From: an uncultured virus (IMG/VR IMGVR_UViG_3300042465_006114)
Lineage: Duplodnaviria > Heunggongvirae > Uroviricota > Caudoviricetes
IMG/VR virus record: IMGVR_UViG_3300042465_006114
DNA: 20,000 nt
Reading direction: 5' to 3' (one strand)
Made by a program: the position numbers and the translations under genes
Shown: in pieces, positions 2,398 through 20,000 of the stretch
Layout: each line of letters begins with the position of its first letter
Numbering within the stretch: the first letter of the stretch is position 1
Notes under the pieces: model-generated
Told to the model about the DNA's origin: nothing
The model's input: the letters and a program-made list of their open reading frames with translations, nothing else
The model's database searches: none

Positions 2398-5300
2398 TTA
2401 TAAAATTCCTCCTAAATCAAATCTTGAATCATTAGACAATGCGTTAAACTCGTATGCATCTGCAAACTTAATTTGATTGCTATCAAAAGCACAATAAGAA
2501 AGCGATGCGTTTTCCAATCCACCATAAGGTTTTGTTGGTATGTATTCGTAAAAAATATAACCATCATAAGTTGTGAACACTTTTACATATTTTGTAAAAG
2601 ACTGCCACAATCTAATTATCTGCCAAGCATAAACCTCTGTGTCTTGTGTAAATCCACTATGTGAAGTTATGTTAGTCCAGAAATCAAAATCTCCAATATT
2701 ATAGTTTACTCTTAAAAAAGTAAGGTATTCTCTAATAGGATATTTTTCAACACCAAACCTTGAAAAATCAATTGGGTTCTTAATATCAATAAAGCATCTC
2801 AATAAAAAATTACCTCTATTTGGATTTAACTTTTTAAGTATTTCCGAATCCACTCCAGCTTTATCCGCCCTATCTTCCCAACTTGTAGCAAAAAACTCCG
2901 ACATCTCTCTCTTGACTGCAAAATAATGTGCGTTATTGGTTTCGTATGTTTTCCAATTTACAAATAAAACGTTTGTTCCGTGAAATACTGGTTGTGGTTC
3001 TTTTGTAATTGGATTAATAACTTTCGATACTCCAGCATAACTATCGTTTAAATATGCGGTTTCCCAATCTCCAAAAAACGATTTAAACTCTGGCGTTCTA
3101 ACATTAAAATATTCTATTTCTGTTAATTGTGATTTTAAAGCGTTTATAGAGGTCATATCTGTTTCTTCGTATTGTTTATCAAAACTTGAAATCTTTAACC
3201 CATATACACCTATTACTCTTTCCTCAATAGATTTTAAACTCATTTCAGCATCGTTAAGTTTTCTCAACTTCAAAATAAATGAATTAATCTCTCTTTGGTA
3301 AAAAGCAACTTCTTCATTTGATAGTATTGGTTTTTTTAAATCCAACTCTTTTGCTAAATCTGAAATCCTTTGCGATAAGTATTTACGTTCTAACTCAAAA
3401 TTACGTTTTGGTTTTTCGGTTTTGCTTGGCTTTGGTTCTTCAATAATTTCTTTTGGAGCATCATAAAGATTAAATTCATCCCAATTATATTTATCTGTAA
3501 ATTCTTTTCTACTATAAATAAAACCAACAAGGTCTGTATAATTTAATAAATTTCTTAAAAAAGTAACGTTACCGTATGTTTTACCATTTTGGTCAACTAT
3601 TTTAAATTCAAAATAATCTCTTTTTGGAAATAGTGAATAATAATCTTTTAAATGGACTAGCAATTGTACAGCACTATAAATTCCAAAGTCAGAAGTGAAT
3701 TGTCCATCTTCCGAAACTGGATACAGTTTCCAAACACTTACTTTTTCTTTTGATACTTCTTCATAATCATCATACATACCTATCTTTTGTAAAAACTTTA
3801 ATGTATTTGGGTCTGCTGGATATAATCCTTGACCATCAATAACAGTCAGCCTATAAACAGTAGGCGGTTCTAATTTATAAAATTCTTTAAAGTAACTTCC
3901 TTTTATGTCTAATATTCTTATTTCTTTTTCTAAAATCCAACCCCCTTTTTTAATAAATTCTAAAATTAATTTTTTAATTTCAACATCTTCATCTGTAATA
4001 CTTTCTTCATCAATTATAGGCGTTGAAGTTGATTGAGTTTTTTTCCAGTCTAAATAACCAAAAATCAATAATTTTGAATTATCAGAAATCATCAAATCTT
4101 CTTTAGGAATACCTAAACTATATTTATAAGACCGAAGTGTAACAACATCTCCAGTATCCGTATTTACTATGTCAAAATCTAATGTTTTATCGCCTTTACT
4201 CCAATCATTTATATTTACTAAGGTAAGATTATTATTCTCAATTACACTATCAATTTGCTTAAACATATCAATTTCTCCAGAAGTAAACTTACTAATAGTT
4301 TTTTCGGTTTTACTTGATATTCCTAAATCAGAAGCAAAAATTTCTTTTCTTTTTGAAGCATAAAATTCGCTTTTTCCATTATTATAAACTACAAAATCAT
4401 CAGTAAATATTTCTATAAAAATATCTTCAATAGACAATAATTCCCTATCTCCGTAATTTTTATCAATTGGAATACCTATTTCAGTAAGTTTTTGCATTAC
4501 CATATCCCTTAAAGCTAAATCAGCTCCAATCCATATTTTAGATTGTTCTAATTCTTCTTTAATAAGTGTTTTACCAGTTTGTTCTTTGGTTTTACTTGGG
4601 GTAGCCTTTGGAGTTCTTTTAGCTCTTTCTTTTGTAGTTTTTATTTCTAAATCAACTAAACTACCATCAGCATTTCTTATTTCATTATCATCAAAATCAA
4701 AATAAACATTTAACTTTGTATTTTTATCTTTATTTTCAGTACCATACATTCCAAGTTCTCCATAAACAAAAGGCATCATTAATCCAATAACGTCTTTACC
4801 TAAAGTAAAAGATGGGTAATAGGTAAAAATTAAAGCTCTTTTATTAGTTTGAAAACTAACATTCATAAATGTACTTCCGCCAAGCTTAACTAATGAACTT
4901 AAAAAGTTAATCATTAAATCTGGAAAAACAGCCATTTTTTCATCATTAATTTTAAATACAACTTCTTTATTATAAGAATAGTTTGAAGCTACTTTAAAGT
5001 AAGTTAATAACTTTAAAATATCAATATATACAACCCTTTTAACTTCTATTTCTTTAGGTATAACTTGTGCGTAATTTGGGTATTTAACATCAAGTTTAAT
5101 GAAACCATCTGGAAACACCTCTTTTAAAGATTTTGAACTTAATTTTTCTTTTTTATAAACGCCTTTAAAATCTCTTTCGTCAGAAGGTATGGTTAATAAA
5201 ATATGTGCGTTAGTAGCGGTAATTCCATTTTCGTCAAAGTTAATACCAGTCATTGCTGGTCGTAATGGCTCTGTACCTAAAAACGGTTTTAAAATTTCAT

Positions 5301-6216
5301 TTAACCCATCATCACTTGGACTTGCATCCCATTCTACCTTTTTTGGTAATCTAATATTTTTAAAAGAATCTGGTATTTCGCTCCAATTATTAACTGTAAC
5401 GTCAGTAGCACCACCTTTTGCATAACTAAAAACAATAGAACCTCCATCAGCAAATAAACCAGTTTCAGCACCAACTACTCCATCAGCATCCATATCTATT
5501 ACATCATTGTAATTGTTTAAATCCCTTGCTGGTGTATTTCCTTTTTTTGAATCTCTAACAAGACTTACTTTACGAACTACTCCACCGTGTTTTAATCCAG
5601 CTCTTTTAAGTAAAGTATAATATTTTGGGTTTTCGTACAAATGGTCTTTTACGATTTTCATTTGTTCACGTTTACTAGAAGTATGTTCGCTTTCAGCTTT
5701 CATACCTAAGTCAACTTGTGTTTGTAATTCTTTTACAGAAACTTTATGTTTTTTAGCAATTTGAGTAAGTGTCATTCCTTCGGCTAAATGTCCTCCAGTA
5801 ATGTGTTTGTATATTTCGTGGTCGGTCATTGTTTTACCACCATACTTATAACTTGCTCCAGTACGTTTTATGTTTTTAGGTATATCGCCACCTTTTGCAA
5901 ATGAAACTCCACCACCTTTTTCGTTTATTGCAGATAACACTTCTCTGTTAGTCATCATTTTACCATTAAACTCATTTTTGGTGTTGTCTGATACTGCTGG
6001 TGCGGTAATAACAACTTCTCCACCTTGCATTTCCAATGCTTGTCCAGTAGATTTGTTTACTGCTTTAATACCACCCTCTGCGTGAGTTTTACCTACTAAA
6101 TATCCGCTTAAAGTTCCTTTGTTATGTATAATAGTCTGCCCTTGTCTTTTACCAACGAGTACTCCGCCAGTAGGCGTTTGTTCTGCTTTATTTTCTGTTA
6201 GGGTTGATTTTTTCAT
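2398..6216 (-). CDS. Large polyvalent phage protein: GG-motif N-terminus, DUF5661-like, beta-clamp-like and C-terminal ART-PolyVal-like ADP-ribosyltransferase domains
   Basis: GMKAESEHT...IVKDHLYENPKYYTLL (DUF5661-like); RPAMTGINFD..ATNAHIL...YPNYAQVIP...LMMP (DnaN-like); RTPEFKSFFGDWE..SKVIN..PVFHGT..YF..IKNP..YDG..FDSNQIK (ART-PolyVal-like). Confidence 0.75.
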   Translation of the reverse strand: MKKSTLTENKAEQTPTGGVLVGKRQGQTIIHNKGTLSGYLVGKTHAEGGIKAVNKSTGQALEMQGGEVVITAPAVSDNTKNEFNGKMMTNREVLSAINEKGGGVSFAKGGDIPKNIKRTGASYKYGGKTMTDHEIYKHITGGHLAEGMTLTQIAKKHKVSVKELQTQVDLGMKAESEHTSSKREQMKIVKDHLYENPKYYTLLKRAGLKHGGVVRKVSLVRDSKKGNTPARDLNNYNDVIDMDADGVVGAETGLFADGGSIVFSYAKGGATDVTVNNWSEIPDSFKNIRLPKKVEWDASPSDDGLNEILKPFLGTEPLRPAMTGINFDENGITATNAHILLTIPSDERDFKGVYKKEKLSSKSLKEVFPDGFIKLDVKYPNYAQVIPKEIEVKRVVYIDILKLLTYFKVASNYSYNKEVVFKINDEKMAVFPDLMINFLSSLVKLGGSTFMNVSFQTNKRALIFTYYPSFTLGKDVIGLMMPFVYGELGMYGTENKDKNTKLNVYFDFDDNEIRNADGSLVDLEIKTTKERAKRTPKATPSKTKEQTGKTLIKEELEQSKIWIGADLALRDMVMQKLTEIGIPIDKNYGDRELLSIEDIFIEIFTDDFVVYNNGKSEFYASKRKEIFASDLGISSKTEKTISKFTSGEIDMFKQIDSVIENNNLTLVNINDWSKGDKTLDFDIVNTDTGDVVTLRSYKYSLGIPKEDLMISDNSKLLIFGYLDWKKTQSTSTPIIDEESITDEDVEIKKLILEFIKKGGWILEKEIRILDIKGSYFKEFYKLEPPTVYRLTVIDGQGLYPADPNTLKFLQKIGMYDDYEEVSKEKVSVWKLYPVSEDGQFTSDFGIYSAVQLLVHLKDYYSLFPKRDYFEFKIVDQNGKTYGNVTFLRNLLNYTDLVGFIYSRKEFTDKYNWDEFNLYDAPKEIIEEPKPSKTEKPKRNFELERKYLSQRISDLAKELDLKKPILSNEEVAFYQREINSFILKLRKLNDAEMSLKSIEERVIGVYGLKISSFDKQYEETDMTSINALKSQLTEIEYFNVRTPEFKSFFGDWETAYLNDSYAGVSKVINPITKEPQPVFHGTNVLFVNWKTYETNNAHYFAVKREMSEFFATSWEDRADKAGVDSEILKKLNPNRGNFLLRCFIDIKNPIDFSRFGVEKYPIREYLTFLRVNYNIGDFDFWTNITSHSGFTQDTEVYAWQIIRLWQSFTKYVKVFTTYDGYIFYEYIPTKPYGGLENASLSYCAFDSNQIKFADAYEFNALSNDSRFDLGGIL

Positions 6217-6380: not shown

Positions 6381-6388
6381 TATATTTG
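6381..6388 (+). promoter_or_regulatory. Bacteroidota-type -7 promoter element TATATTTG for the small + strand gene
   Basis: tatatttg 28 nt upstream of the ATG at 6417. Confidence 0.65.
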
Positions 6389-6416
6389 TGGTTATTAATT
6401 AATAAAAATTAAAAAG

Positions 6417-6536
6417 ATGCAAGACGTATTTAACATTAAAAGTCCAAACTGGTTGGGAGGTACAAATGTACATAACACAATTACAATTGTGTTGTTAGTA
6501 TTAGTAGCTTACAAAGTTGGAGCATTTAAAAAGTAA
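6417..6536 (+). CDS. 39-aa single-TM membrane peptide (MQDVFNIKSPNWLGGTNVHNTITIVLLVLVAYKVGAFKK), not in the ORF track
   Basis: Hand translated; own promoter element, A-rich leader, hydrophobic segment with basic C-tail, terminator directly downstream. Confidence 0.75.
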   Translation: MQDVFNIKSPNWLGGTNVHNTITIVLLVLVAYKVGAFKK

Positions 6537-6556
6537 TTAAATTATTTTTTTAGTGT

Positions 6557-6590
6557 AAAAAAAATGCCACTCTTTCGGGTGGCTTTTTTT
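6557..6590. terminator. Bidirectional intrinsic terminator
   Basis: A8 tract, stem GCCACTC-TTTC-GGGTGGC (6566-6583), T7 tract; lies between convergent genes. Confidence 0.85.
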
Positions 6591-7067: not shown

Positions 7068-8351
7068 TTATTTTACTAATCTATCAATAATTACTTTGAA
7101 TTGCTTTGCAATACCTTCCCACTTCATTGCGGAAACTTTATTAAAAGCGTTTTCTATTTTTTGCTTAACTTGTTCTTGCAGTTCTGGTTCTTCGTTTGAT
7201 AATCCATAAACAACTTCGCATAAAGTTTTTACTTCCATTGGGTTTGTTGTAAGTCTTATTTTTTCAAAGTCATTTACAAATACCGATTGTTGGCTAAACA
7301 TAAAATTCAAAGTGTTTTCTCCGTTGTCTGTTATCTCTGTAATAGAAGTGTGTTTTGGACAAACCACAAGTGTTTTAGTAGCCATAGCTTCTGTTATTGT
7401 TAATCCCCAACCTTCCGCAGTTGTAGTGGTAATAAAGCAATCAAATGAATTGTAGATTTTATTTAGTTCTTCTGGAGTGCAACCTTTATTTTCTGAAAAA
7501 TCTTTTGGAACAATTACATCTTTACCTACTTCCAGTCCTACTCTATCGCAAAGTCTATAAATGTTTATCCCCATAGGGTCTGTTGGATTACAATGAAGAT
7601 ATAACAAGGCATCAGCACCAGTAGTGTGTTTGAACATAGCAAATCCCATAATAAGACTTCCGAAATCTTTTCTAACTTGGTTTCTGTTTACGCTTCCGAA
7701 TACAAATGTATTTTCTCTTTCAGCACCAAATAATTCAACTTTAGCTAATCCTTTGTTTAATTCCGAATAAGGATAAAAATCGGTTGTATTAGTTCCGTGC
7801 GGTATAATTTTAATCTTTTTGAATTGTGTGTCAGAAAGTAACGGTTTCATCACTCCTTTGGCGTATTGCGTATAAGTAACTACTTCATCGAAAAATGATA
7901 ATACTTTTAAATCAGCCATTCTTGGCTCACTATCAATTGGGAAATAAATTATCGACTTAAAGTTAGGTCGGTTTTCTTCTCTCTTTTTATTTTTTACTTC
8001 TTTTAGATTATCAGCCATTGCATTAATAACTTCTACATCTTGTAAAAAAAACAAAGCATCAAAATCGTTTTGATAAATTATTTGAAGTAACTCAATTCGT
8101 CTATAAACATCTCCTCTAGTGTCTTTGTCGCCAGTTTGCAAAGCTGGTATTACTTTTACGTTTGGTAAGTAATCATAAACTGCTTTACTCTTATCATTAA
8201 TAGCAAAAATGACAATACTTAAATTTTTGTCTTTCGCCCATTCATTTACAAGTTCTTTAGCAACTGCTCCAAATCCAGTTGTGCAATTCCAATCAGCATA
8301 TACTAATAATGATTTTTGTGTTTCTACTTTTTTGCGGTGTACGACTTTCAT
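7068..8351 (-). CDS. Glycosyltransferase family 4 (GT-B fold)
   Basis: TGFG N-terminal loop, IPHG, VNRNQVRKD, EGWGLTITEAMA (Ex7E motif). Confidence 0.9.
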   Translation of the reverse strand: MKVVHRKKVETQKSLLVYADWNCTTGFGAVAKELVNEWAKDKNLSIVIFAINDKSKAVYDYLPNVKVIPALQTGDKDTRGDVYRRIELLQIIYQNDFDALFFLQDVEVINAMADNLKEVKNKKREENRPNFKSIIYFPIDSEPRMADLKVLSFFDEVVTYTQYAKGVMKPLLSDTQFKKIKIIPHGTNTTDFYPYSELNKGLAKVELFGAERENTFVFGSVNRNQVRKDFGSLIMGFAMFKHTTGADALLYLHCNPTDPMGINIYRLCDRVGLEVGKDVIVPKDFSENKGCTPEELNKIYNSFDCFITTTTAEGWGLTITEAMATKTLVVCPKHTSITEITDNGENTLNFMFSQQSVFVNDFEKIRLTTNPMEVKTLCEVVYGLSNEEPELQEQVKQKIENAFNKVSAMKWEGIAKQFKVIIDRLVK

Positions 8352-8695
8352 AATTTGTTGTTTTAAGTTTCTGGTTGTAAATATACTATTTATTAAATAA
8401 ATAATATTTGATTGTATGAATTAATGCTTTTATATAAAAGTATATCCATATTAAAACTGTTATCCAAGACATCACTATTAATATAGATAAAGTCAAATTA
8501 TAATAAAATTTTATACTTTTATGAAAACTAAATTCTTGTAAAATTTTTTGACTTTGTTCAAATAATCCTATTGTGTTTGGTTCATTTAAAATTTTTAAAA
8601 TGTAAATTCCAATTGGATATGCTACAAAGCATCCTAATAAATAAATTTGTAATCCGTTCATAATTTTTGTTTTTAAGTTTCTGGTTGTAAATATA
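8347..8695 (-). repeat. 39-bp direct repeats (8347-8385 and 8657-8695) spanning a promoter-like element, leader and start codon
   Basis: 36/39 identical; perfect 25-nt core ttttaagtttctggttgtaaatata at 8361-8385 and 8671-8695. Confidence 0.95.
8386..8661 (-). CDS. Hypothetical two-TM membrane protein
   Basis: Two hydrophobic segments; ORF lies exactly between the direct repeats. Confidence 0.65.
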   Translation of the reverse strand: MNGLQIYLLGCFVAYPIGIYILKILNEPNTIGLFEQSQKILQEFSFHKSIKFYYNLTLSILIVMSWITVLIWIYFYIKALIHTIKYYLFNK

Positions 8696-9209
8696 TGTTA
8701 ATTATTTTATTTTCTTTTTCGTATTCTAATCTTTTTAAGTATGCTTCTTCTTCGGTTTTAAACATTCCCAAATTTATTTTTTTGTGATTTATTTGAATTT
8801 GACTTAACCATCTTTTATCTCTTGAAATATAAGAAACTCCTCTATAAACACTTGAAGTTTTTTTACCTATAAATCTATGACAATTATTTTCTGATGCTGA
8901 AACCCATTCTAAATTTTCAATTCTATTGTCTTTTCGGTTTAAATTTTTGTGATTTACTTGTTTTTTATTATTTTCATTACTAATAAAAGATTTAGCAATC
9001 AATCTATGAACTCTAAATAATTTTGTTTTTTTTTCAAAAATTAAGTGAATCAAACAATAACCATCTTTGTCTAAATATTGAGGTATTATTTTTTTTTCAT
9101 TTTTAATTCTACCAAAATTACTTACTTGATACAAAATATCAAAACCATCTAACTCTTTCCAAATTTCGCCTTTTATATCTTTGTTAGATATATTTTTATG
9201 AATTTCCAT
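8673..9209 (-). CDS. NUMOD4-HNH homing endonuclease with C-terminal AP2-like domain
   Basis: EIWK..YQVSNFGRIK (NUMOD4); VHRLIA..VNHKN..DNRIENLEW (HNH_3); SSVYRGVS..W..LGMFKTEEEA (AP2-like). ATG at 9209 preferred to GTG at 9224. Confidence 0.9.
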   Translation of the reverse strand: MEIHKNISNKDIKGEIWKELDGFDILYQVSNFGRIKNEKKIIPQYLDKDGYCLIHLIFEKKTKLFRVHRLIAKSFISNENNKKQVNHKNLNRKDNRIENLEWVSASENNCHRFIGKKTSSVYRGVSYISRDKRWLSQIQINHKKINLGMFKTEEEAYLKRLEYEKENKIINIYLQPET

Positions 9210-9337: not shown

Positions 9338-9964
9338 TTAATCTATTCCTTTTTCTCTATTATCTGATAAACTCATAACATAGTATGTAGCTGGGCAATT
9401 TTCCGCTTTTTTGTGCTTTCCATTTTGCATCATATTTTGTATTAAAGCAAAGTCGTGTCCATATTCTGCATCGTGCTTAGGCATTTGCTTTAAAAAATCA
9501 GTTCTTACAATTAGTTCACTATGACCTATCATACCGTATTCTAAACGAGAAACCCTTGTTCCGTTTACTGGTTTAACTTCCGAGTTAAAGTAAACAAAAT
9601 CTAAATCAGTTCCTTCTATTTGAGAAAGATAATTTTCAAAATGATTAGGTAAAATAATATCATCGTTAGCAAAAAATACAAAATACTTTCCTTGTGCAAT
9701 TTGTATGTTGTTATTGGTAATTGCAAAACCGTGTCCGCCTTGATTAATTGGATTGTTACATATCATCAAGTCATTTCCATTATGCGAACATTGGTCTATT
9801 AATCCAGCAAAATATTCGCTATCTATAAAGTCTTGCATTACTGGACAACCATCTCCTACAACATAAGCTTCCCAACCATTTGTGTTTTGATTAGCAATAC
9901 AATTTATTGCTCTTATAGTTCTTTCTGGTCTGCCATAACTAGGCATTGATAATGTTAATCTCAT
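9338..9964 (-). CDS. Glycosyltransferase family 2 (GT-A fold)
   Basis: MPSYGR N-terminal strand, VVGDG, AQGKYFVFFANDDII (DxD-like), GHDFAL. Confidence 0.85.
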   Translation of the reverse strand: MRLTLSMPSYGRPERTIRAINCIANQNTNGWEAYVVGDGCPVMQDFIDSEYFAGLIDQCSHNGNDLMICNNPINQGGHGFAITNNNIQIAQGKYFVFFANDDIILPNHFENYLSQIEGTDLDFVYFNSEVKPVNGTRVSRLEYGMIGHSELIVRTDFLKQMPKHDAEYGHDFALIQNMMQNGKHKKAENCPATYYVMSLSDNREKGID

Positions 9965-10218
9965 AATTTTTCTTCTTTTTTATATATTTCTAATAGTTCT
10001 TTTTGTATAGTAAGAATTTGTAAATCACTTAATGCTTCTACATCATAAGTTCTTGATTTGTCTATAACTTCTAAAAGTAAATCTAATTTATAAGCAAGAG
10101 AACCTAATTCTTCTTGGGTTTCAATATCTTCAAAATCTTGTACAAAGTCAATTACTATTTGACTGTATTTTTCCATATTATAATAAGTATCGTTGCTTAA
10201 CTGCTCTATTGTTCTCAT
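9961..10218 (-). CDS. Hypothetical phage protein ending in KELLEIYKKE motif
   Basis: ATGA overlap with the downstream GT2; helical, acidic. Confidence 0.65.
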   Translation of the reverse strand: MRTIEQLSNDTYYNMEKYSQIVIDFVQDFEDIETQEELGSLAYKLDLLLEVIDKSRTYDVEALSDLQILTIQKELLEIYKKEEKL

Positions 10219-10220
10219 AA

Positions 10221-10427
10221 TTATTTAATTTTATTTTTAAGTTGCATTTCTAGTTTCTGAACATTAATCATTTGCGTTACTACATTGCAAATAGCGTTTG
10301 CTTGTGGTATAAAAGCTTTGTCTGATTTAACTTTTTCAAGCGTATCAAATAATACGCCTTTAATATCAAAATTAACATTTTCTGTTCTTACTATTTCTGA
10401 TATTTTATTGTTTTGTTGTAATTCCAT
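10221..10427 (-). CDS. Hypothetical phage protein
   Basis: 68-aa ORF in operon context. Confidence 0.6.
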   Translation of the reverse strand: MELQQNNKISEIVRTENVNFDIKGVLFDTLEKVKSDKAFIPQANAICNVVTQMINVQKLEMQLKNKIK

Positions 10428-10690
10428 TTTTCTTTTTTGTAGATTTCTAATAGTTCTTTTGTCGTTAATTCTTTATGTCCAAAATCATTACTCCATCCAT
10501 TTTCATAACAAGAATAAGTATGTTCATCTAAAAAATGAGCAAACCCAATAGTAAATTCATCTCTATCTACTTCTGTTTCTTCAATACCAGCCAATATACC
10601 AGCTTCAAAAAGTTCATCTTCTGTTTCTCTACCGTTTAAATTTTGTTTATGTAAAAAAGAATAATATTCTACTTTTTCTTTTAGTGTCAT
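10391..10690 (-). CDS. Hypothetical phage protein with TTKELLEIYKKE motif
   Basis: 99-aa ORF, ATGA-coupled to the upstream small ORF. Confidence 0.65.
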   Translation of the reverse strand: MTLKEKVEYYSFLHKQNLNGRETEDELFEAGILAGIEETEVDRDEFTIGFAHFLDEHTYSCYENGWSNDFGHKELTTKELLEIYKKEKWNYNKTIKYQK

Positions 10691-15041: not shown

Positions 15042-15669
15042 AAGCGTTTTCTTGTTTTGTTTTTTCTGTCTTAATATTTTCGTTTAAATATGATTCAAAC
15101 TTATTTCCAAACAATGTATTTGGAGTTAAGTAATCCTCAAACTTTGTGTTTTGCCATTTAGTAGATTTTACCGAAATAACTTTTATAAAATCATCTAACG
15201 TATAACCTTCGCTAAATCTTGCATTAATATTAATTATAGCAACTTTTGAATTTGTCTTAAAAGATTTACCAGTACATTCATTTAAAAAGTTAATAATCTT
15301 TTCAATCAATTCATCATTGGTCTTTGGTTTAACTTGGGGTTGTCTTAATTGTTTTGCTTTAGGTTTTAAAATTACATATTTAGGTTTTATTACTTCATCT
15401 TCTGGATTAATAGACATAACGTTTCCGTATAAATTAATTATTATTTCGTTTCTTTTTTTAACTAAAGAATAATTTTTTATATATTTTGGAAACACATCTA
15501 TTCCGTACTGAATTATACGATAATATGTGCTTTTAGCAACATTAGGTGTAACACTTAATTTTATCACTTGACCATTCTCTCCATTATACTGAATAAGAAG
15601 TGGCATCCAAGTTTGATAATACAACGCACCTTTACTTCGTAAGTCTTTGATAAATAGCATTAGCTCCAT
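14998..15669 (-). CDS. Phage replication initiator-like protein with Phg_2220_C domain
   Basis: IINFLNECTGKSFK..INARFSEGYTLDDFIKVI..W....YLTPNTLFGNKFESYLNE. Confidence 0.8.
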   Translation of the reverse strand: MELMLFIKDLRSKGALYYQTWMPLLIQYNGENGQVIKLSVTPNVAKSTYYRIIQYGIDVFPKYIKNYSLVKKRNEIIINLYGNVMSINPEDEVIKPKYVILKPKAKQLRQPQVKPKTNDELIEKIINFLNECTGKSFKTNSKVAIININARFSEGYTLDDFIKVISVKSTKWQNTKFEDYLTPNTLFGNKFESYLNENIKTEKTKQENAYEQVIKATELGFNN

Positions 15670-15899
15670 TAGTCATCTATTAAATCGTCATAAGATACAT
15701 TTAGTGCTTTCTTTATTGGTTTTAATGTATTGATGTTAAAGTTCGTTCTTTTGCCATTAATAATTTCGTTAAGGATATACATAGAAACAGATTCTCCATT
15801 GTTGGTTTGTTTAATTAAATTATGCAAATCTTTTTGTGTCATACCTCGTTTAATAAGTATCTTATAAATCTTGGTTACTTGAATAGTTATTTCTTCCAT
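15669..15899 (-). CDS. XRE/Cro-family HTH regulator
   Basis: ILIKRGMTQKDL...LNEIINGK..NINTLKPIKKALNVSYDDLI. Confidence 0.85.
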   Translation of the reverse strand: MEEITIQVTKIYKILIKRGMTQKDLHNLIKQTNNGESVSMYILNEIINGKRTNFNINTLKPIKKALNVSYDDLIDD

Positions 15900-15900
15900 T

Positions 15901-16113
15901 TTATTGTTTTAAATATTGAGTAAAATAATCGTATTTTTTATGGCGTATCGCATCGTTATAATTAGAAACAAAACTTTTAGAACCTAACTTAACTAATGTA
16001 TTAGAAACACTTGTTTTTATAGATTCTAAATCTACTTGTCCAAATAAATCTCTGTAAATTAAAACAGTTAAATTATCAATTGCTTCAAAAGAAGGTGTTT
16101 TTATTATTTCCAT
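15901..16113 (-). CDS. Hypothetical protein
   Basis: Start MEIIK at 16113 is TAATG-coupled to the upstream stop, preferred to 16146. Confidence 0.6.
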   Translation of the reverse strand: MEIIKTPSFEAIDNLTVLIYRDLFGQVDLESIKTSVSNTLVKLGSKSFVSNYNDAIRHKKYDYFTQYLKQ

Positions 16114-16439
16114 TATAAATTTAATTTGTAAGTTGTAAAATTGCAAACTTCGTTGTTACGGTCAAATGAATTGTTTGGAATAGATTCAATTTCATATCCC
16201 CTTTCTCTTAATTTAAAAATAATAGACGACAACCTTGTAGCACCATAAAGACTGATTGCAGTCCAACTATCAATTGTTCCATTTTCAATAAGATGTTTTT
16301 TTACTTTAGAAATTTTTGTACTTTGTTTTTCAAAAGATTTTCTAATTTTAGTTCTTGGTTTAACTACTGATTGACTAATAGTTTTTTCTTCTTTAATAGG
16401 TTTGAAAAGATTTAAAAAAAAATGTGTTAAATTGTTCAT
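16113..16439 (-). CDS. Winged-helix DNA-binding protein (HTH_39-like)
   Basis: VKKHLIENGTIDSWTAISLYGATRLSSIIFKLRERGYEIES. Confidence 0.75.
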   Translation of the reverse strand: MNNLTHFFLNLFKPIKEEKTISQSVVKPRTKIRKSFEKQSTKISKVKKHLIENGTIDSWTAISLYGATRLSSIIFKLRERGYEIESIPNNSFDRNNEVCNFTTYKLNL

Positions 16440-16681: not shown

Positions 16682-17410
16682 TTATTTTAAAATTTTAATT
16701 TTGTTTTTTAATTCGTTTGGGAAATCATTTTTAAGAACCCAGTTTAAATAACCAACATCTTCAATAACTGACTTATTCAAATTTTTACCAAACGACCAGC
16801 GTACAGTTCCATCTTTATCCATATAAGTCTTATTACTAAAATCATATCTTTTTTTATTAGCTTGACATTCTAAATCTATTTCTTGTGGTGTTTTTTCTTG
16901 ATTTGATTTTATCTGGTGTAATAAAACTTCTAACGTTGCTCTTACGTCATTTAAAGCATCGTGCGAACCTTCTAGTTTATTTCCAGTATATCTTTCATAA
17001 ACTGCTCCAAGATTATTTGGATTAAGTAGGCGTTCGTATTTTAAAACATCAACCAAGTTTAATTCCCAAGTAGGAAATTCAATATTACATCTTTCAAATT
17101 CTTGTATTAAAAGTGGCACATCATAGTTATCTGAATTATAACCTCCAATATCGCAACCATTAAAATATTCATTTAAAGCAATTGCTATCTGTGAAAAGTA
17201 TGGTGCGTCTTTAACTTTTTCATCTGTAATTCCGTGAACATCGGATGCTTCTTTTGGAATAGGAATTAACGGTTTAATCAACATACACTTTTCTTCTTTG
17301 TTTCCTTCTAAATCAATTTTTATACAAGCTATTTGTACAATTCTTGAATTTACAATATCTAGTCCAGTTGTTTCTAAATCGAAAAAAATAATTGGTTTTG
17401 AAATTTTCAT
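16682..17410 (-). CDS. DEDDh 3'-5' exonuclease (DnaQ/epsilon-like)
   Basis: ExoI FFDLETTG, VHGI, ExoII GYNSDNYD, ExoIII HDALNDV; C-terminal FGK...YLNW extension. Confidence 0.92.
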   Translation of the reverse strand: MKISKPIIFFDLETTGLDIVNSRIVQIACIKIDLEGNKEEKCMLIKPLIPIPKEASDVHGITDEKVKDAPYFSQIAIALNEYFNGCDIGGYNSDNYDVPLLIQEFERCNIEFPTWELNLVDVLKYERLLNPNNLGAVYERYTGNKLEGSHDALNDVRATLEVLLHQIKSNQEKTPQEIDLECQANKKRYDFSNKTYMDKDGTVRWSFGKNLNKSVIEDVGYLNWVLKNDFPNELKNKIKILK

Positions 17411-17427
17411 TTTATTTGTTTGTTTGT

Positions 17428-17550
17428 TTATTTATTTAATTGTTCTTGTTCTTTAAAATATGCTTTTAGAAATAAATTAAAATAATATTCCTTTTCAGAA
17501 ATATTACATTTAAAATATCTTTCAGCTAAATAGTCGGACATTGTTTTCAT
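17428..17550 (-). CDS. 40-aa hypothetical peptide (not in ORF track)
   Basis: Hand translation MKTMSDYLAERYFKCNISEKEYYFNLFLKAYFKEQEQLNK; fills operon gap. Confidence 0.5.
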   Translation of the reverse strand: MKTMSDYLAERYFKCNISEKEYYFNLFLKAYFKEQEQLNK

Positions 17551-17556
17551 TTTTAT

Positions 17557-17790
17557 TTAATTAAATAATTCAGTTAATAATACACCACATAAAGCTCCTA
17601 CTCCAGCTCCTAAAGAATATATTAATTTTTTTTTCATAGAACTCATTGCTAAACGTGAAACATTAAAAGTCCATAGTAAAGAAATAAGAAAAGAAACAAA
17701 AAATATTCCTATATATAAATGTTTTGTTATTAAAATAGTAGAAATAGAAACAAGTCCTATTTGAAAGAATGATTGGAAAAATGTTTTCAT
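17557..17790 (-). CDS. Small three-TM membrane protein
   Basis: Three hydrophobic segments, GAGVGALCG C-terminal helix. Confidence 0.7.
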   Translation of the reverse strand: MKTFFQSFFQIGLVSISTILITKHLYIGIFFVSFLISLLWTFNVSRLAMSSMKKKLIYSLGAGVGALCGVLLTELFN

Positions 17791-17798
17791 ATTTTAAT

Positions 17799-18176
17799 TT
17801 ATATAAAGAACCAGAATAATGTAAAGAAAAAAATAATAATAGAAATTATACAGTAAAAAATAAAAAAAATAAATTCTTTCTTATTTTGTACTGTTTTTTT
17901 TTCTTTCATATAGTTTTCTTTTCTCTGAATTTTAAGTGAATTTTCTATTTCTGTAATTACAATTTTATCTAAAACTTTAATCCAATATACATCCCCTTCT
18001 TTTGAATTATTAAACATAAAAGCACCTATCAATTTAGAATCTCTAAATTCTTGTCTTGTGTCCATCTTTATATTTCTTTCTTTAAAGTATCTAATATGAT
18101 TTGCATAAGCAAGTGCTTGGTCTTTTTCAGTAAGTTGATTTACTAAAATTTCATTCCATAATATTTCTTTTTTCAT
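17799..18176 (-). CDS. Hypothetical protein with C-terminal membrane anchor
   Basis: Start MKKEILW at 18176 is TAATG-coupled (alternative start 18200); hydrophobic C-terminus. Confidence 0.6.
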   Translation of the reverse strand: MKKEILWNEILVNQLTEKDQALAYANHIRYFKERNIKMDTRQEFRDSKLIGAFMFNNSKEGDVYWIKVLDKIVITEIENSLKIQRKENYMKEKKTVQNKKEFIFFIFYCIISIIIFFFTLFWFFI

Positions 18177-18352
18177 TATTTTATTTTTTTTATTTTCCAT
18201 AATCCAATATAAGTATTTCCCCTAGACAACATTTCGTTTTCTCCAATACTACCATATAAAACAGTGGTATTTAAAGTTGGAAAGTTGTGTAAATAAAAAA
18301 AAGTGCATTTGTTAAAAATAACAACATTTTCGATTGTATAATTAAATTTCAT
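18176..18352 (-). CDS. 58-aa hypothetical protein (not in ORF track)
   Basis: Hand translation MKFNYTIENVVIFNKCTFFYLHNF...IGLWKIKKIK; starts 2 nt after the upstream stop. Confidence 0.5.
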   Translation of the reverse strand: MKFNYTIENVVIFNKCTFFYLHNFPTLNTTVLYGSIGENEMLSRGNTYIGLWKIKKIK

Positions 18353-18354
18353 AA

Positions 18355-18594
18355 TTAAACTAGTCTTTGTCTATAAATAACAAAGTAATAACTATTACCA
18401 TTTTCATCTTCAACTCTATAATCATCCATAGTCATATCCTCATTCCAACCCAATGTAGATTTCATAGAATAAGACTTTACTTCACAAGTTGATTCAATCC
18501 AATCTCTAGCTTCTTCTTCTCTTAAAAACGCTAAACAAAATGGAGTTACATTTTTTTGAACTCCTTTATACAAAACATTAAAAACTTCTATCAT
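18355..18594 (-). CDS. Hypothetical phage protein
   Basis: 79-aa ORF in operon; F..EEEA..W pattern. Confidence 0.65.
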   Translation of the reverse strand: MIEVFNVLYKGVQKNVTPFCLAFLREEEARDWIESTCEVKSYSMKSTLGWNEDMTMDDYRVEDENGNSYYFVIYRQRLV

Positions 18595-18610
18595 AATTAT
18601 AAATTTAAAA

Positions 18611-18868
18611 TTAATCTAATAATATATAAAATGCTTCTGGATTGTTATCTCCAAACCAAGCAATACCTTTTTGCATTTCTCCAATAAGTTTATCGGAAAG
18701 AGAACCTCTTAACTCGTAAAGCATATTACACCCAATTATAAAATCGTACATCGACAATTCTAAATTGTTTAAATAAAATTCTTGCCCACTAAAAGGATTT
18801 GTAACCACATCTCCTTTTTCGTAAACTTCTCCTTTAAACCAATCTGGTAAAATTTGTTTTTCTATCAT
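18611..18868 (-). CDS. Hypothetical phage protein
   Basis: LPDWFKGEVY..G..VTNPFSG..LSMYDFIIG..NPEAFYILLD; ATG at 18868 preferred to TTG at 18883. Confidence 0.7.
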   Translation of the reverse strand: MIEKQILPDWFKGEVYEKGDVVTNPFSGQEFYLNNLELSMYDFIIGCNMLYELRGSLSDKLIGEMQKGIAWFGDNNPEAFYILLD

Positions 18869-18876
18869 TTTATTAT

Positions 18877-19107
18877 TTACCAATTACTAACGTTATTAAT
18901 ACAATAATCACTTCCAACTTGTGCATTTATCCAATCTCCAGCTTGAAGATAAAATTTTTGTTCTTTTCCAGAGCATTGATTTCTAATTACAACTGAATAA
19001 TCTTTTACATTGTCGCTCACAACTAAACCGCAATTACATTCTGCAATTTTTTCAGCAGAGCATCCGAACAAAATTGGCATAGCCAATACAATAAATAATT
19101 TTTTCAT
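18877..19107 (-). CDS. Small Cys-rich lipoprotein
   Basis: MKK + hydrophobic core + LFG-C lipobox; four further Cys; beta-rich mature part. Confidence 0.75.
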   Translation of the reverse strand: MKKLFIVLAMPILFGCSAEKIAECNCGLVVSDNVKDYSVVIRNQCSGKEQKFYLQAGDWINAQVGSDYCINNVSNW

Positions 19108-19143
19108 AATAGTTTTGTTTTTTATATTAATAGTTCATTGGTA

Positions 19144-19151
19144 CAAATATA
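19144..19151 (-). promoter_or_regulatory. Bacteroidota-type -7 promoter element TATATTTG for the small-ORF operon
   Basis: caaatata on +, 36 nt upstream of the start at 19107. Confidence 0.7.
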
Positions 19152-19271
19152 AATAGGTTTTTTGGTTTAACAAAATAATAATGAATTATTTTAGTTAAAA
19201 TTTAGTTAAAATTATTATTTAGATGTTTCGGTTAATTCTAGTTTATTTTTTTTTTAAAAAAAAATTAAAAT

Positions 19272-19439
19272 AGTTATTCCCACGAAGTTCCCAAATTTCT
19301 TTGTAAGTTGTTGAATATTAGTACTAAAAGTCCCAAGTTATTCCCACGAAAAAAAAGTTATTCCCACGAAATTCCTAAATTTATTTGTAAGTCATTGAAA
19401 ATCAACACTAAAAGTTCCACAAAAGTCCCACGAAAAAAA
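19272..19439. repeat. Two imperfect 84-bp tandem units containing four CCCACGAA boxes
   Basis: agttattcccacgaa at 19272, 19336 and 19356; variant aagtcccacgaa at 19423. Confidence 0.9.
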
Positions 19440-19629
19440 GTTTTTTAAAAAAAAATTGTTTCTACCAAAACTAGTTGCAACCATTTTCCCAAAGTTAGGA
19501 AAAAGGTTTAATCACATTTTCTTTGATTTAAGCAACGATTTTATATTTTAAGAGCAAGAGTTTAGAATTGATAAAACAATTAACCAGACACCCTTAAATT
19601 TAATTTATTAGGTGTTTAAAAAAATATTG

Positions 19630-19637
19630 TACATTTG
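19630..19637 (+). promoter_or_regulatory. Bacteroidota-type -7 promoter element TACATTTG
   Basis: Matches TAnnTTTG; followed by two stems and a T tract rather than an ORF. Confidence 0.6.
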
Positions 19638-19640
19638 CAA

Positions 19641-19734
19641 TACGAGGTTGCTTCTCGTAATAAACCATCAGCACCATAGTTTTGTTTTTAGTAGTTCATT
19701 AACATTCCTCAAAAAGCTGGTGGTTTTCTTTTTT
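19641..19734 (+). ncRNA. Candidate trans-acting antisense small RNA
   Basis: 5' hairpin TACGAG/CTCGTA, 11-bp stem AAACCATCAGC/GCTGGTGGTTT, T tract; loop matches 19109-19139. Confidence 0.65.
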
Positions 19735-19860
19735 AACTTATTTTAAGTCGATTTAAGAGATTATTTTTAATAAGGTGGTATATAGTTATACTAAGGACAA
19801 TTTATTTAAAGCATAGTATCTTATTATTAAGTCAGAAGTATATCAGTATTTTTTTTTTGG

Positions 19861-19902
19861 CGTTCCACTTCGTTACACACCTCCGTTCCACTTCGTTCCA
19901 CT
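19861..19902. repeat. Four short CGTTCCACTT-like repeats
   Basis: Copies at 19861, 19871 (variant), 19884 and 19894. Confidence 0.85.
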
Positions 19903-20000
19903 GTTATATTTTTTTTGTCTTGTCGGGTTTATTTTTCTTCTCTGTTATCTAAATTTATTTTAACATTTTTTTAACATTTACAGTAACTGTTGTGGGGGGG

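Follow-up and report, generated by a model that had tools for sequence, protein, structure and literature searches.

The question raised by this locus is whether a small RNA is encoded by the interval 19630–19737, on the + strand of a phage sequence whose credible genes all occupy the − strand between 19107 and 2, and whether such an RNA would be directed against the early transcript that diverges from it. The window, i.e. the whole stretch of 20,000 nucleotides analysed here, comes from an uncultured phage; the DNA runs bearing its sequence are lake, freshwater and aquatic metagenomes, and the source is probably a lake-water phage with Flavobacteria as its host group. Genes for a replication initiator, a DnaQ-type exonuclease, small helix-turn-helix proteins encoded at 15669–15899 and 16113–16439, HNH endonucleases, glycosyltransferases and a 1272-aa polyvalent protein are present, the last of these (2398–6216, − strand) having a DUF5661 domain and a weak, sub-threshold match to a polyvalent-protein ADP-ribosyltransferase domain. 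The window also carries a tRNA-Gln, and a tRNA was the sole match within it in a gathering-level Rfam scan. Positions 19108–20000 are non-coding and repeat-rich. Among cultured phages a nucleotide-level relationship was found only with Flavobacterium psychrophilum phages, via the exonuclease gene alone, at 68.8% identity and with a different gene order, and a search of the GenBank phage collection with the candidate sRNA region gave no match. The exonuclease had relatives of at most 31–53% identity, without synteny, in IMG/VR and metagenomes, a tblastn search with 12 early proteins against 108 loci gave no match, and the neighbouring 90-aa and 133-aa proteins yielded no useful loci as search queries.

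All of the sequence features listed for this interval in an initial annotation were found at their coordinates by direct check of the letters, and the ORF-less + strand unit complementary to the divergent leader that it described is present in the sequence. The unit is made up as follows.

19630..19637, + strand: −7 box TACATTTG of the candidate sRNA, fitting TAHHTTTG (from sequence; kept in homologues)
19642..19737, + strand: predicted ORF-less transcript of about 95 nt (+1 placed by the position of the G at −5; fold)
19641..19659, + strand: 5′ hairpin, lineage-specific (palindrome unique in the window)
19662..19672, + strand: 5′ arm of an 11-bp stem, pairing with 19716–19726
19673..19715, + strand: 43-nt loop, with block 1 at 19676–19689 and block 2 at 19690–19700, the latter extending the 9-mer at 19692–19700
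19716..19726, + strand: 3′ arm of the 11-bp stem, pairing with 19662–19672
19727..19737, + strand: T run, the putative terminator tail (from sequence)

ATG is absent from the + strand between 19642 and 19735, and a listed 44-aa GTG frame (19612–19746) begins upstream of the predicted start. With its own −7 box, no ORF, and a stem and T run as predicted terminator, the interval has the makeup of a trans-encoded sRNA gene. Its sequence anatomy is established, and from this we infer transcription and the transcript ends. Bacteroidota promoters are described as having a −7 element TAHHTTTG with a G at −5, and a −33 TTTG element that is weak (PMC6847099); a clear −33 TTTG is absent upstream of the sRNA −7 box. 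The form TA[CT]ATTTG occurs in eight copies in the window; intergenic sequence makes up 12% of the window and holds six of them (binomial p 6.6e-5), and these intergenic copies include boxes before the early operon and before other gene blocks. By contrast, TANNTTTG alone shows no enrichment (42 occurrences in the window vs 40 expected). A promoter and terminator scan of the sigma-70 type is unsuited to this phylum and missed the long-loop hairpin.

Another + strand unit lies amid the − strand genes at 6381–6590, with a TATATTTG box at 6381, a 39-aa ORF (6417–6536) whose product has a hydrophobic segment and ends in KK, and a classical terminator (6566–6583). A TACATTTG box on the − strand inside this ORF (6463–6470) would yield an antisense transcript, and the layout, as read from these elements, resembles that of a type I toxin-antitoxin pair.

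Folding of the candidate RNA gave −22.7 kcal/mol for the + strand (z −3.48, 0 of 200 shuffles as good) and −19.2 kcal/mol for the − strand (z −2.05, 7 of 200 shuffles as good), and the 11-bp stem has, as the initial annotation had noted, a single T/G position that allows pairing in the + strand RNA only. The palindrome at 19641–19659 forms 6 bp, or 7 bp with a G·U pair; the 5′ hairpin proposed there exists in the window but is not conserved in two homologues. Within the loop, block 1 has a mean unpaired probability of 0.61 and the 9-mer one of 0.86. A near-identical stem and T run, with a 5-nt loop, follows tRNA genes in a Flavobacteriales genome, and this fits the reading of the candidate's stem and T run as a + strand terminator; the 43-nt loop, unusually long for an intrinsic terminator, counts against a terminator. 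At L115 1510–1550 and 1620–1660, in that Flavobacteriales genome, there are two tandem tRNA genes with a terminator after each, and the similarity of these terminators may be a clue to the origin of the phage stem or to the host group of the phage. The + strand promoter and hairpin could instead constitute the leader or attenuator of a + strand operon past 20000, since the window stops there and + strand genes could lie downstream, and P4 CI RNA, which is cut from an operon leader, offers a precedent. This we regard as very improbable, as the 265 nt that follow the T run contain no start of a + strand ORF, two homologous contigs end at a poly-G run or 35 nt beyond it with no ORF between, and in a 219-nt context the + strand fold persists and no alternative anti-terminator fold is seen.

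The transcript proposed as the target diverges from the candidate gene, and the following features were recognized in and around its leader.

18877..19107, − strand: first early gene, encoding a 76-aa lipoprotein of an uncharacterised phage family (listed ORF)
19108..19139, − strand: predicted 32-nt 5′ UTR of the early mRNA (+1 placed at 19139 by the G at −5 rule)
19127..19138, − strand: 5′-terminal mini-ORF Met-Asn-Tyr-stop, inside the paired segment (read from sequence)
19144..19151, − strand: −7 box TATATTTG of the divergent early promoter (from sequence; promoter and flank 82–85% identical in homologues)
19267..19434, no strand: two 84-nt tandem units with iteron-like repeats, separating the early promoter from the sRNA gene (repeat analysis; 80–81% kept in homologues)

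The lipoprotein belongs to a family of 69 related clusters, all of them unnamed and without a Pfam family, that is widespread in aquatic phage contigs and has invariant Cys/Asn-Cys-Gly and SD..DYSVVIR motifs. Its predicted structure is a small beta-barrel (pLDDT 80) whose fold does not reveal a function; the model had no PDB match at E ≤ 0.001, and comparison with PHROG gave a single weak match, to Cor (E 9e-4). Homologues were found at 20 IMG/VR loci and one genome locus (L088–L108), the common part being the 3′ two-thirds of the gene, and since nucleotide-level sharing is limited to the mature part, the gene moves as a cassette. The leaders at these loci are unrelated to that of the window, and a matching RNA was present within 3 kb at none of them.

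The complementarity between loop and leader consists of a 14-mer found exactly at 19109 and 19676 only, and a 9-mer found exactly at 19131 and 19692 only, in the 20 kb. As had been reported, the two segments have the same order in the loop as at 19109–19122 and 19131–19139 of the divergent leader. Dinucleotide shuffles of 19108–20000 produced a non-overlapping 14-mer repeat in 150 of 2000 cases, and a 14-mer with a colinear 9-mer in 2 of 2000. Local alignment of the two copies ends with a 31/25-nt segment and there is no flanking homology; because the identity begins at the predicted +1 (19139) and ends at 19109, it covers the predicted 5′ UTR alone. The predicted loop–leader duplex comprises 25 bp with a 6-nt bulge and begins at +1, with an energy of −23.5 kcal/mol. 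Pairing had been proposed to extend from about the predicted 5′ end to 2 nt before the lipoprotein AUG, and its extent is upheld, but the gap to the AUG is 1 nt (19108) rather than 2.

To place this duplex among other potential targets, the loop was compared with 6575 − strand windows of 40 nt (mean raw duplex energy −9.9 kcal/mol, sd 3.15), among which the leader, at −24.0 kcal/mol, was second to a coding site at 7382–7421 (−27.2 kcal/mol). After correction for accessibility the lipoprotein leader became the best predicted target among 32 start regions (−18.4 or −18.2 kcal/mol), in line with the original proposal, with runners-up at −14.3, −13.6 and −12.0 kcal/mol and the strongest coding sites at −15.2 and −14.2 kcal/mol. 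The predicted margin of the leader over other targets, 3–4 kcal/mol, is real and modest. A near-complement at 8659–8675, also pointed out in the initial annotation, is real but weak (duplex −13.6, net −9.1 kcal/mol, rank 7 of 32). Raw duplex energies of the full RNA against 60-nt windows were unusable, its own antisense locus dominating them. Two small proteins encoded at 9961–10218 and 10391–10690 (− strand) have a common C-terminal KELLEIYKKE motif, and the sequence coding for it, which forms the start regions of the next genes, resembles the lipoprotein leader and provides the second and fourth best predicted loop targets.

Identity of the two copies does not of itself prove antisense use, because leader duplicates are common in these phages; duplicated leaders precede ordinary genes at 3 of 14 lipoprotein-bearing loci and at the window starts 8351 and 8661. 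The anti-leader copy probably arose by such a leader duplication. These two genes have leaders (8352–8392 and 8662–8702, − strand) that are near-identical over about 38 nt, include a TATATTTA box, and represent a duplicated promoter–leader cassette adjoining an HNH endonuclease gene.

Homologues of the RNA gene were sought in IMG/VR with a pattern naming the two stem arms only, and two homologous contigs, L113/G001 (11.1 kb) and L114/G002 (4.5 kb), were recovered, showing that the + strand unit is conserved in two other phage contigs. Both stem arms are identical at 11 of 11 positions, an identity thus imposed by the search pattern. The sRNA −7 box and the next 4 nt are identical at 12 of 12 positions in both homologues, with flanks at 30–73% identity, and the 5′ tail is at 30–35%. 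The 5′ two-thirds of the loop differ only by one additional C and by the lengths of two T runs, whereas identity in the 3′ third is 40–47%. A T run of differing sequence follows the stem in both contigs, and identity over the entire alignable region is 58–61%. This is the pattern expected if the promoter, the closing stem and the pairing surface matter and the rest does not. A tblastn search with 27 ORFs from the homologue contigs produced no match in the window at E ≤ 1e-3; the early genes of G001 and G002 encode an RNA-polymerase alpha-CTD-like protein, a sigma region-4 protein, methylases and RecT, and their first early gene encodes a 139–143-aa protein with no Pfam family. As judged from sequence comparison, the element common to the three phages is a non-coding module.

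A non-coding stretch of about 900 nt surrounding the RNA gene (window 19108–20000; L113 1–1344 and L114 1–931, minus strands) is common to the three phages in mosaic form, the shared parts being the early promoter, GTTATTCCCACGAA-type iteron-like repeats, the RNA gene, several short blocks and a terminal poly-G run. This run of 7–10 G follows a conserved block of about 20 nt in all three phages (window 19994–20000, the start of L113, and about 36–45 of L114), and its presence in all three indicates that it is not a sequencing artefact. L113 ends exactly there, L114 ends 35 nt beyond and the window stops inside the run, which may be a physical genome end or an assembly breakpoint. In G001 the early promoter and the iterons are separated by an inserted 134-aa ORF (L113 764–1168, locus minus strand), in the + orientation of the window and with its own TATATTTG box and terminator; its product has a C-terminal hydrophobic anchor and no Pfam family.

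Comparison of the three phages also bears on whether the loop copy (copy B) is simply a duplicated start region, either as a decaying relic or as the start of a small − strand gene (25-aa frame 19677–19600). Copy B does end in ATG on the − strand, and duplicated leaders before real genes are, as noted, common in these phages. The frame, however, has 25 codons in the window and 7 codons in both homologues, a strain variant has a 1-nt insertion inside it, and a TANNTTTG box is absent on the − strand to the right of copy B. Copy B is also far better kept than its surroundings (about 60% identity), unlike a relic. Because the opposite frame is not conserved and copy B is kept, both a hidden gene and a decaying relic are largely refuted and we give this explanation the slightest of weight; the possibility, raised in the initial annotation, of a relic duplicated leader transcribed on the minus strand is likewise largely ruled out by the homologue comparison.

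In G001 and G002 the divergent early promoter is followed by the same first 11 transcribed nucleotides and then by a different leader, and the 11-mer AGTAGTTCATT occurs in exactly two copies per homologue, one at the leader and one in the loop. A loop–leader duplex starting from +1 is predicted in all three phages, with energies of −16.3 and −19.1 kcal/mol in the homologues, and in each of the three phages 0 of 1000 shuffled loops paired as well. In accessibility-corrected rankings the leader is first of 8 start regions in G002 and second of 18 in G001. At one position of the 11-mer, opposite a G of the loop, the window has U and the homologues have C; the outcome is G·U in the one case and G-C in the other, so that pairing is kept. 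In the window the predicted pairing does extend close to the lipoprotein start, as first claimed, but the part of it that is conserved involves the first 11–13 nt of the early transcript, irrespective of which gene comes first. The mini-ORF begins at nucleotide 2 of the predicted early mRNA in the window, is the same in G002 and has six codons in G001; it shows one substitution across the phages, which is synonymous (third base of the Tyr codon). Compensatory covariation was not detected, two-sided changes being found in 0 of 14 stem pairs, for which the arms were fixed by the search pattern, and in 0 loop–leader pairs; between loop and leader the three phages show one one-sided compatible change and one mismatch (G001). 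Conservation in three phages and pairing potential are established, and from them we infer repression and its purpose.

The absence of covariation leaves conservation that would suit a protein-binding site equally well, and the identical segments could be operator-like DNA sites of one phage or host DNA-binding protein, with the hairpin and T run serving as terminator or insulator. Consistent with this, the copies are direct repeats with the 11-mer repeated exactly, one of them lies across +1 to +11 of the early promoter, where operators are typically found, and the region is full of other repeats resembling protein sites. However, the sites are non-palindromic, and the spacing of the 11-mer to block 1 varies between copies and phages (2 nt in the loop copy vs 8 nt in the window leader, and different again in the G001 and G002 leaders), which is easier to reconcile with RNA bulges than with a rigid protein site. 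The second copy moreover lies exactly in the loop of a conserved stem, between a strand-specific −7 box and a T run, and the sole difference between the copies is one tolerated as a G·U pair. DNA sites are for these reasons judged a rather improbable explanation.

If the RNA is made, its main job could nevertheless be other than pairing with the early leader: it could be an origin-associated transcript or an activator that protects the mRNA 5′ end, or could regulate further mRNAs of the phage or host whose leaders are A-rich. On either side of the gene lies a set of iteron-like repeats that has been conserved along with it, and the A-rich runs of several other start regions pair weakly with the loop. 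The 14-nt block 1 has an exact leader partner in the window only, and is kept in G001 and G002 though their adjacent leaders give just partial A-rich partners. In G001 the paired segment lies 28–43 nt upstream of the AUG, beyond the ribosome footprint. Set against these points, the duplex comes within 1 nt of the AUG in the window and covers the AUG in G002, the leader ranks first or second among start regions in all three phages, and the sequence bears no mark of a primer or R-loop function; a different main job is in our view unlikely.

A covariance model built from the three homologues detected the RNA gene at 19642..19737 with E 1.5e-15, the window being one of its training sequences, and had no credible match in the remaining 71 of the 74 sources searched (four rows, E 0.03–0.8). 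In 151 Flavobacteriales genomes the tRNA terminator was its sole match, the stem pattern had 0 matches in 401 Flavobacteriales genomes, and an exact 30-mer of the RNA was absent from IMG/VR. A gapped pattern of the 14-mer and 9-mer matched two IMG/VR contigs in an unrelated coding region, and these were set aside as chance matches.

A strain-variant contig in DNA run X6 covers 19356–20000 and departs from the window by 22 substitutions and 7 indels, of which 25 are listed. The block 19626–19727 contains none of these 25 (a priori p 0.014–0.045), a figure to be read with a post-hoc largest-gap test that is non-significant (p 0.30) and with four substitutions beyond those listed that could fall in this block. 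The differences nearest to the block are at 19625 and a T-run length change at 19728/9. Among contigs of metatranscriptome run X11 on 17000–20000, 0 bridge 19626–19712 and one touches 19713–19766; these are assembled contigs of one RNA library, which cannot indicate absence, strand or ends.

Several known RNAs invite comparison. CopA of R1 and RNA I of ColE1 are transcribed from the complementary strand of their targets and have loops of 6–7 nt. The candidate is like them in its loop-presented recognition sequence, its long complementarity, a chaperone that is presumably unneeded and an mRNA leader beside iteron or origin sequences; unlike theirs, its complement is a displaced copy in a 43-nt loop. 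RNAs of the C4 type are cut by RNase P from the transcript carrying their own target, and the Rfam C4 family also includes P4 CI RNA. The suggestion in the initial annotation of an analogy to P1 c4 or P4 CI RNA does not extend to kinship, since the candidate has its own promoter, is divergent to its target and lacks a C4 match even at E ≤ 10, a scan of 19100–20000 at that threshold giving two unrelated chance rows. In logic c4 is the closest: in P1 and P7, two exposed short segments of c4 RNA pair with phage mRNA near the translation start and block expression (PMC12197685), and 14 nt and 9 nt (11 extended) of the candidate's loop pair with two leader segments. Whereas c4 is processed from the operon of its target, an antirepressor, the candidate has its own conserved −7 box and as its target the first early gene, whichever that is, in a host phylum that, unlike the c4 setting, is without Shine-Dalgarno sequences. 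The P22 sar and lambda OOP RNAs, of about 70–77 nt, likewise pair with phage mRNA and lower its translation or stability (PMC12197685); they overlap the target gene on the opposite strand, whereas the candidate gene is about 570 nt from its target. A cis-antisense RNA of the OOP/sar type was rejected here, nothing being conserved opposite the candidate (frame of 25 vs 7 codons, no − strand promoter box to the right).

The explanation we favour is that 19630–19737 encodes a + strand antisense RNA that targets the divergent early leader and damps early expression, a proposal which, on the sequence evidence above, we consider to stand at about an even chance. The candidate would probably represent a new family of phage antisense RNA within a known kind of base-pairing RNA. 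According to this proposal a promoter of the Bacteroidota host type would drive an RNA of about 95 nt, ended by the long-loop hairpin and U run, and the loop would display an 'anti-leader' that pairs with the 5′ UTR of the early mRNA from nucleotide 1 to 1 nt before the start codon. Bacteroidota are described as initiating translation without Shine-Dalgarno pairing, via open A-rich leaders (PMC6847099). As the early mRNAs have no Shine-Dalgarno sequence and rely on an open A-rich leader, the duplex should block ribosomes, and would keep them from both the first early gene and the 5′-terminal mini-ORF. It may also bring about double-strand cleavage of the mRNA, or polarity on downstream genes, and the likely outcome would be that early expression is damped or shut off. 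For the lysis/latency or early-to-late switch suggested in the initial annotation, the sequence offered support neither for nor against.

A broader and more speculative proposal, which we hold to be doubtful, is that these roughly 900 nt form a portable 'early-control cassette' moving between otherwise unrelated Flavobacteriales phages, and that its RNA turns off any early operon linked to it by masking the 5′ end of that operon's mRNA. The parts of such a cassette would be the early promoter, the three-codon mini-ORF, the iteron-like repeats, the anti-leader RNA gene and the poly-G end.

Regulatory RNAs of phages are known nearly only from Proteobacteria and a few Firmicutes. The text of a 2025 review of phage sRNAs does not mention Bacteroidota or Flavobacterium (PMC12197685), no literature on antisense or small RNAs of Flavobacterium or Bacteroidetes phages was found in open-access text, and Bacteroidota are absent from titles among the matches listed for phage sRNAs in open-access text. 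An RNA that masks leaders would provide a clean natural test of initiation control in Bacteroidota, and a module common to phages without detectable similarity of their early proteins bears on the spread of regulatory cassettes in aquatic phages. Were the cassette proposal true, the masked extreme 5′ end would be the ribosome loading point in a system without Shine-Dalgarno sequences, and the specificity of RNA-based immunity or early shutoff would be set by the cassette and not by the genes.
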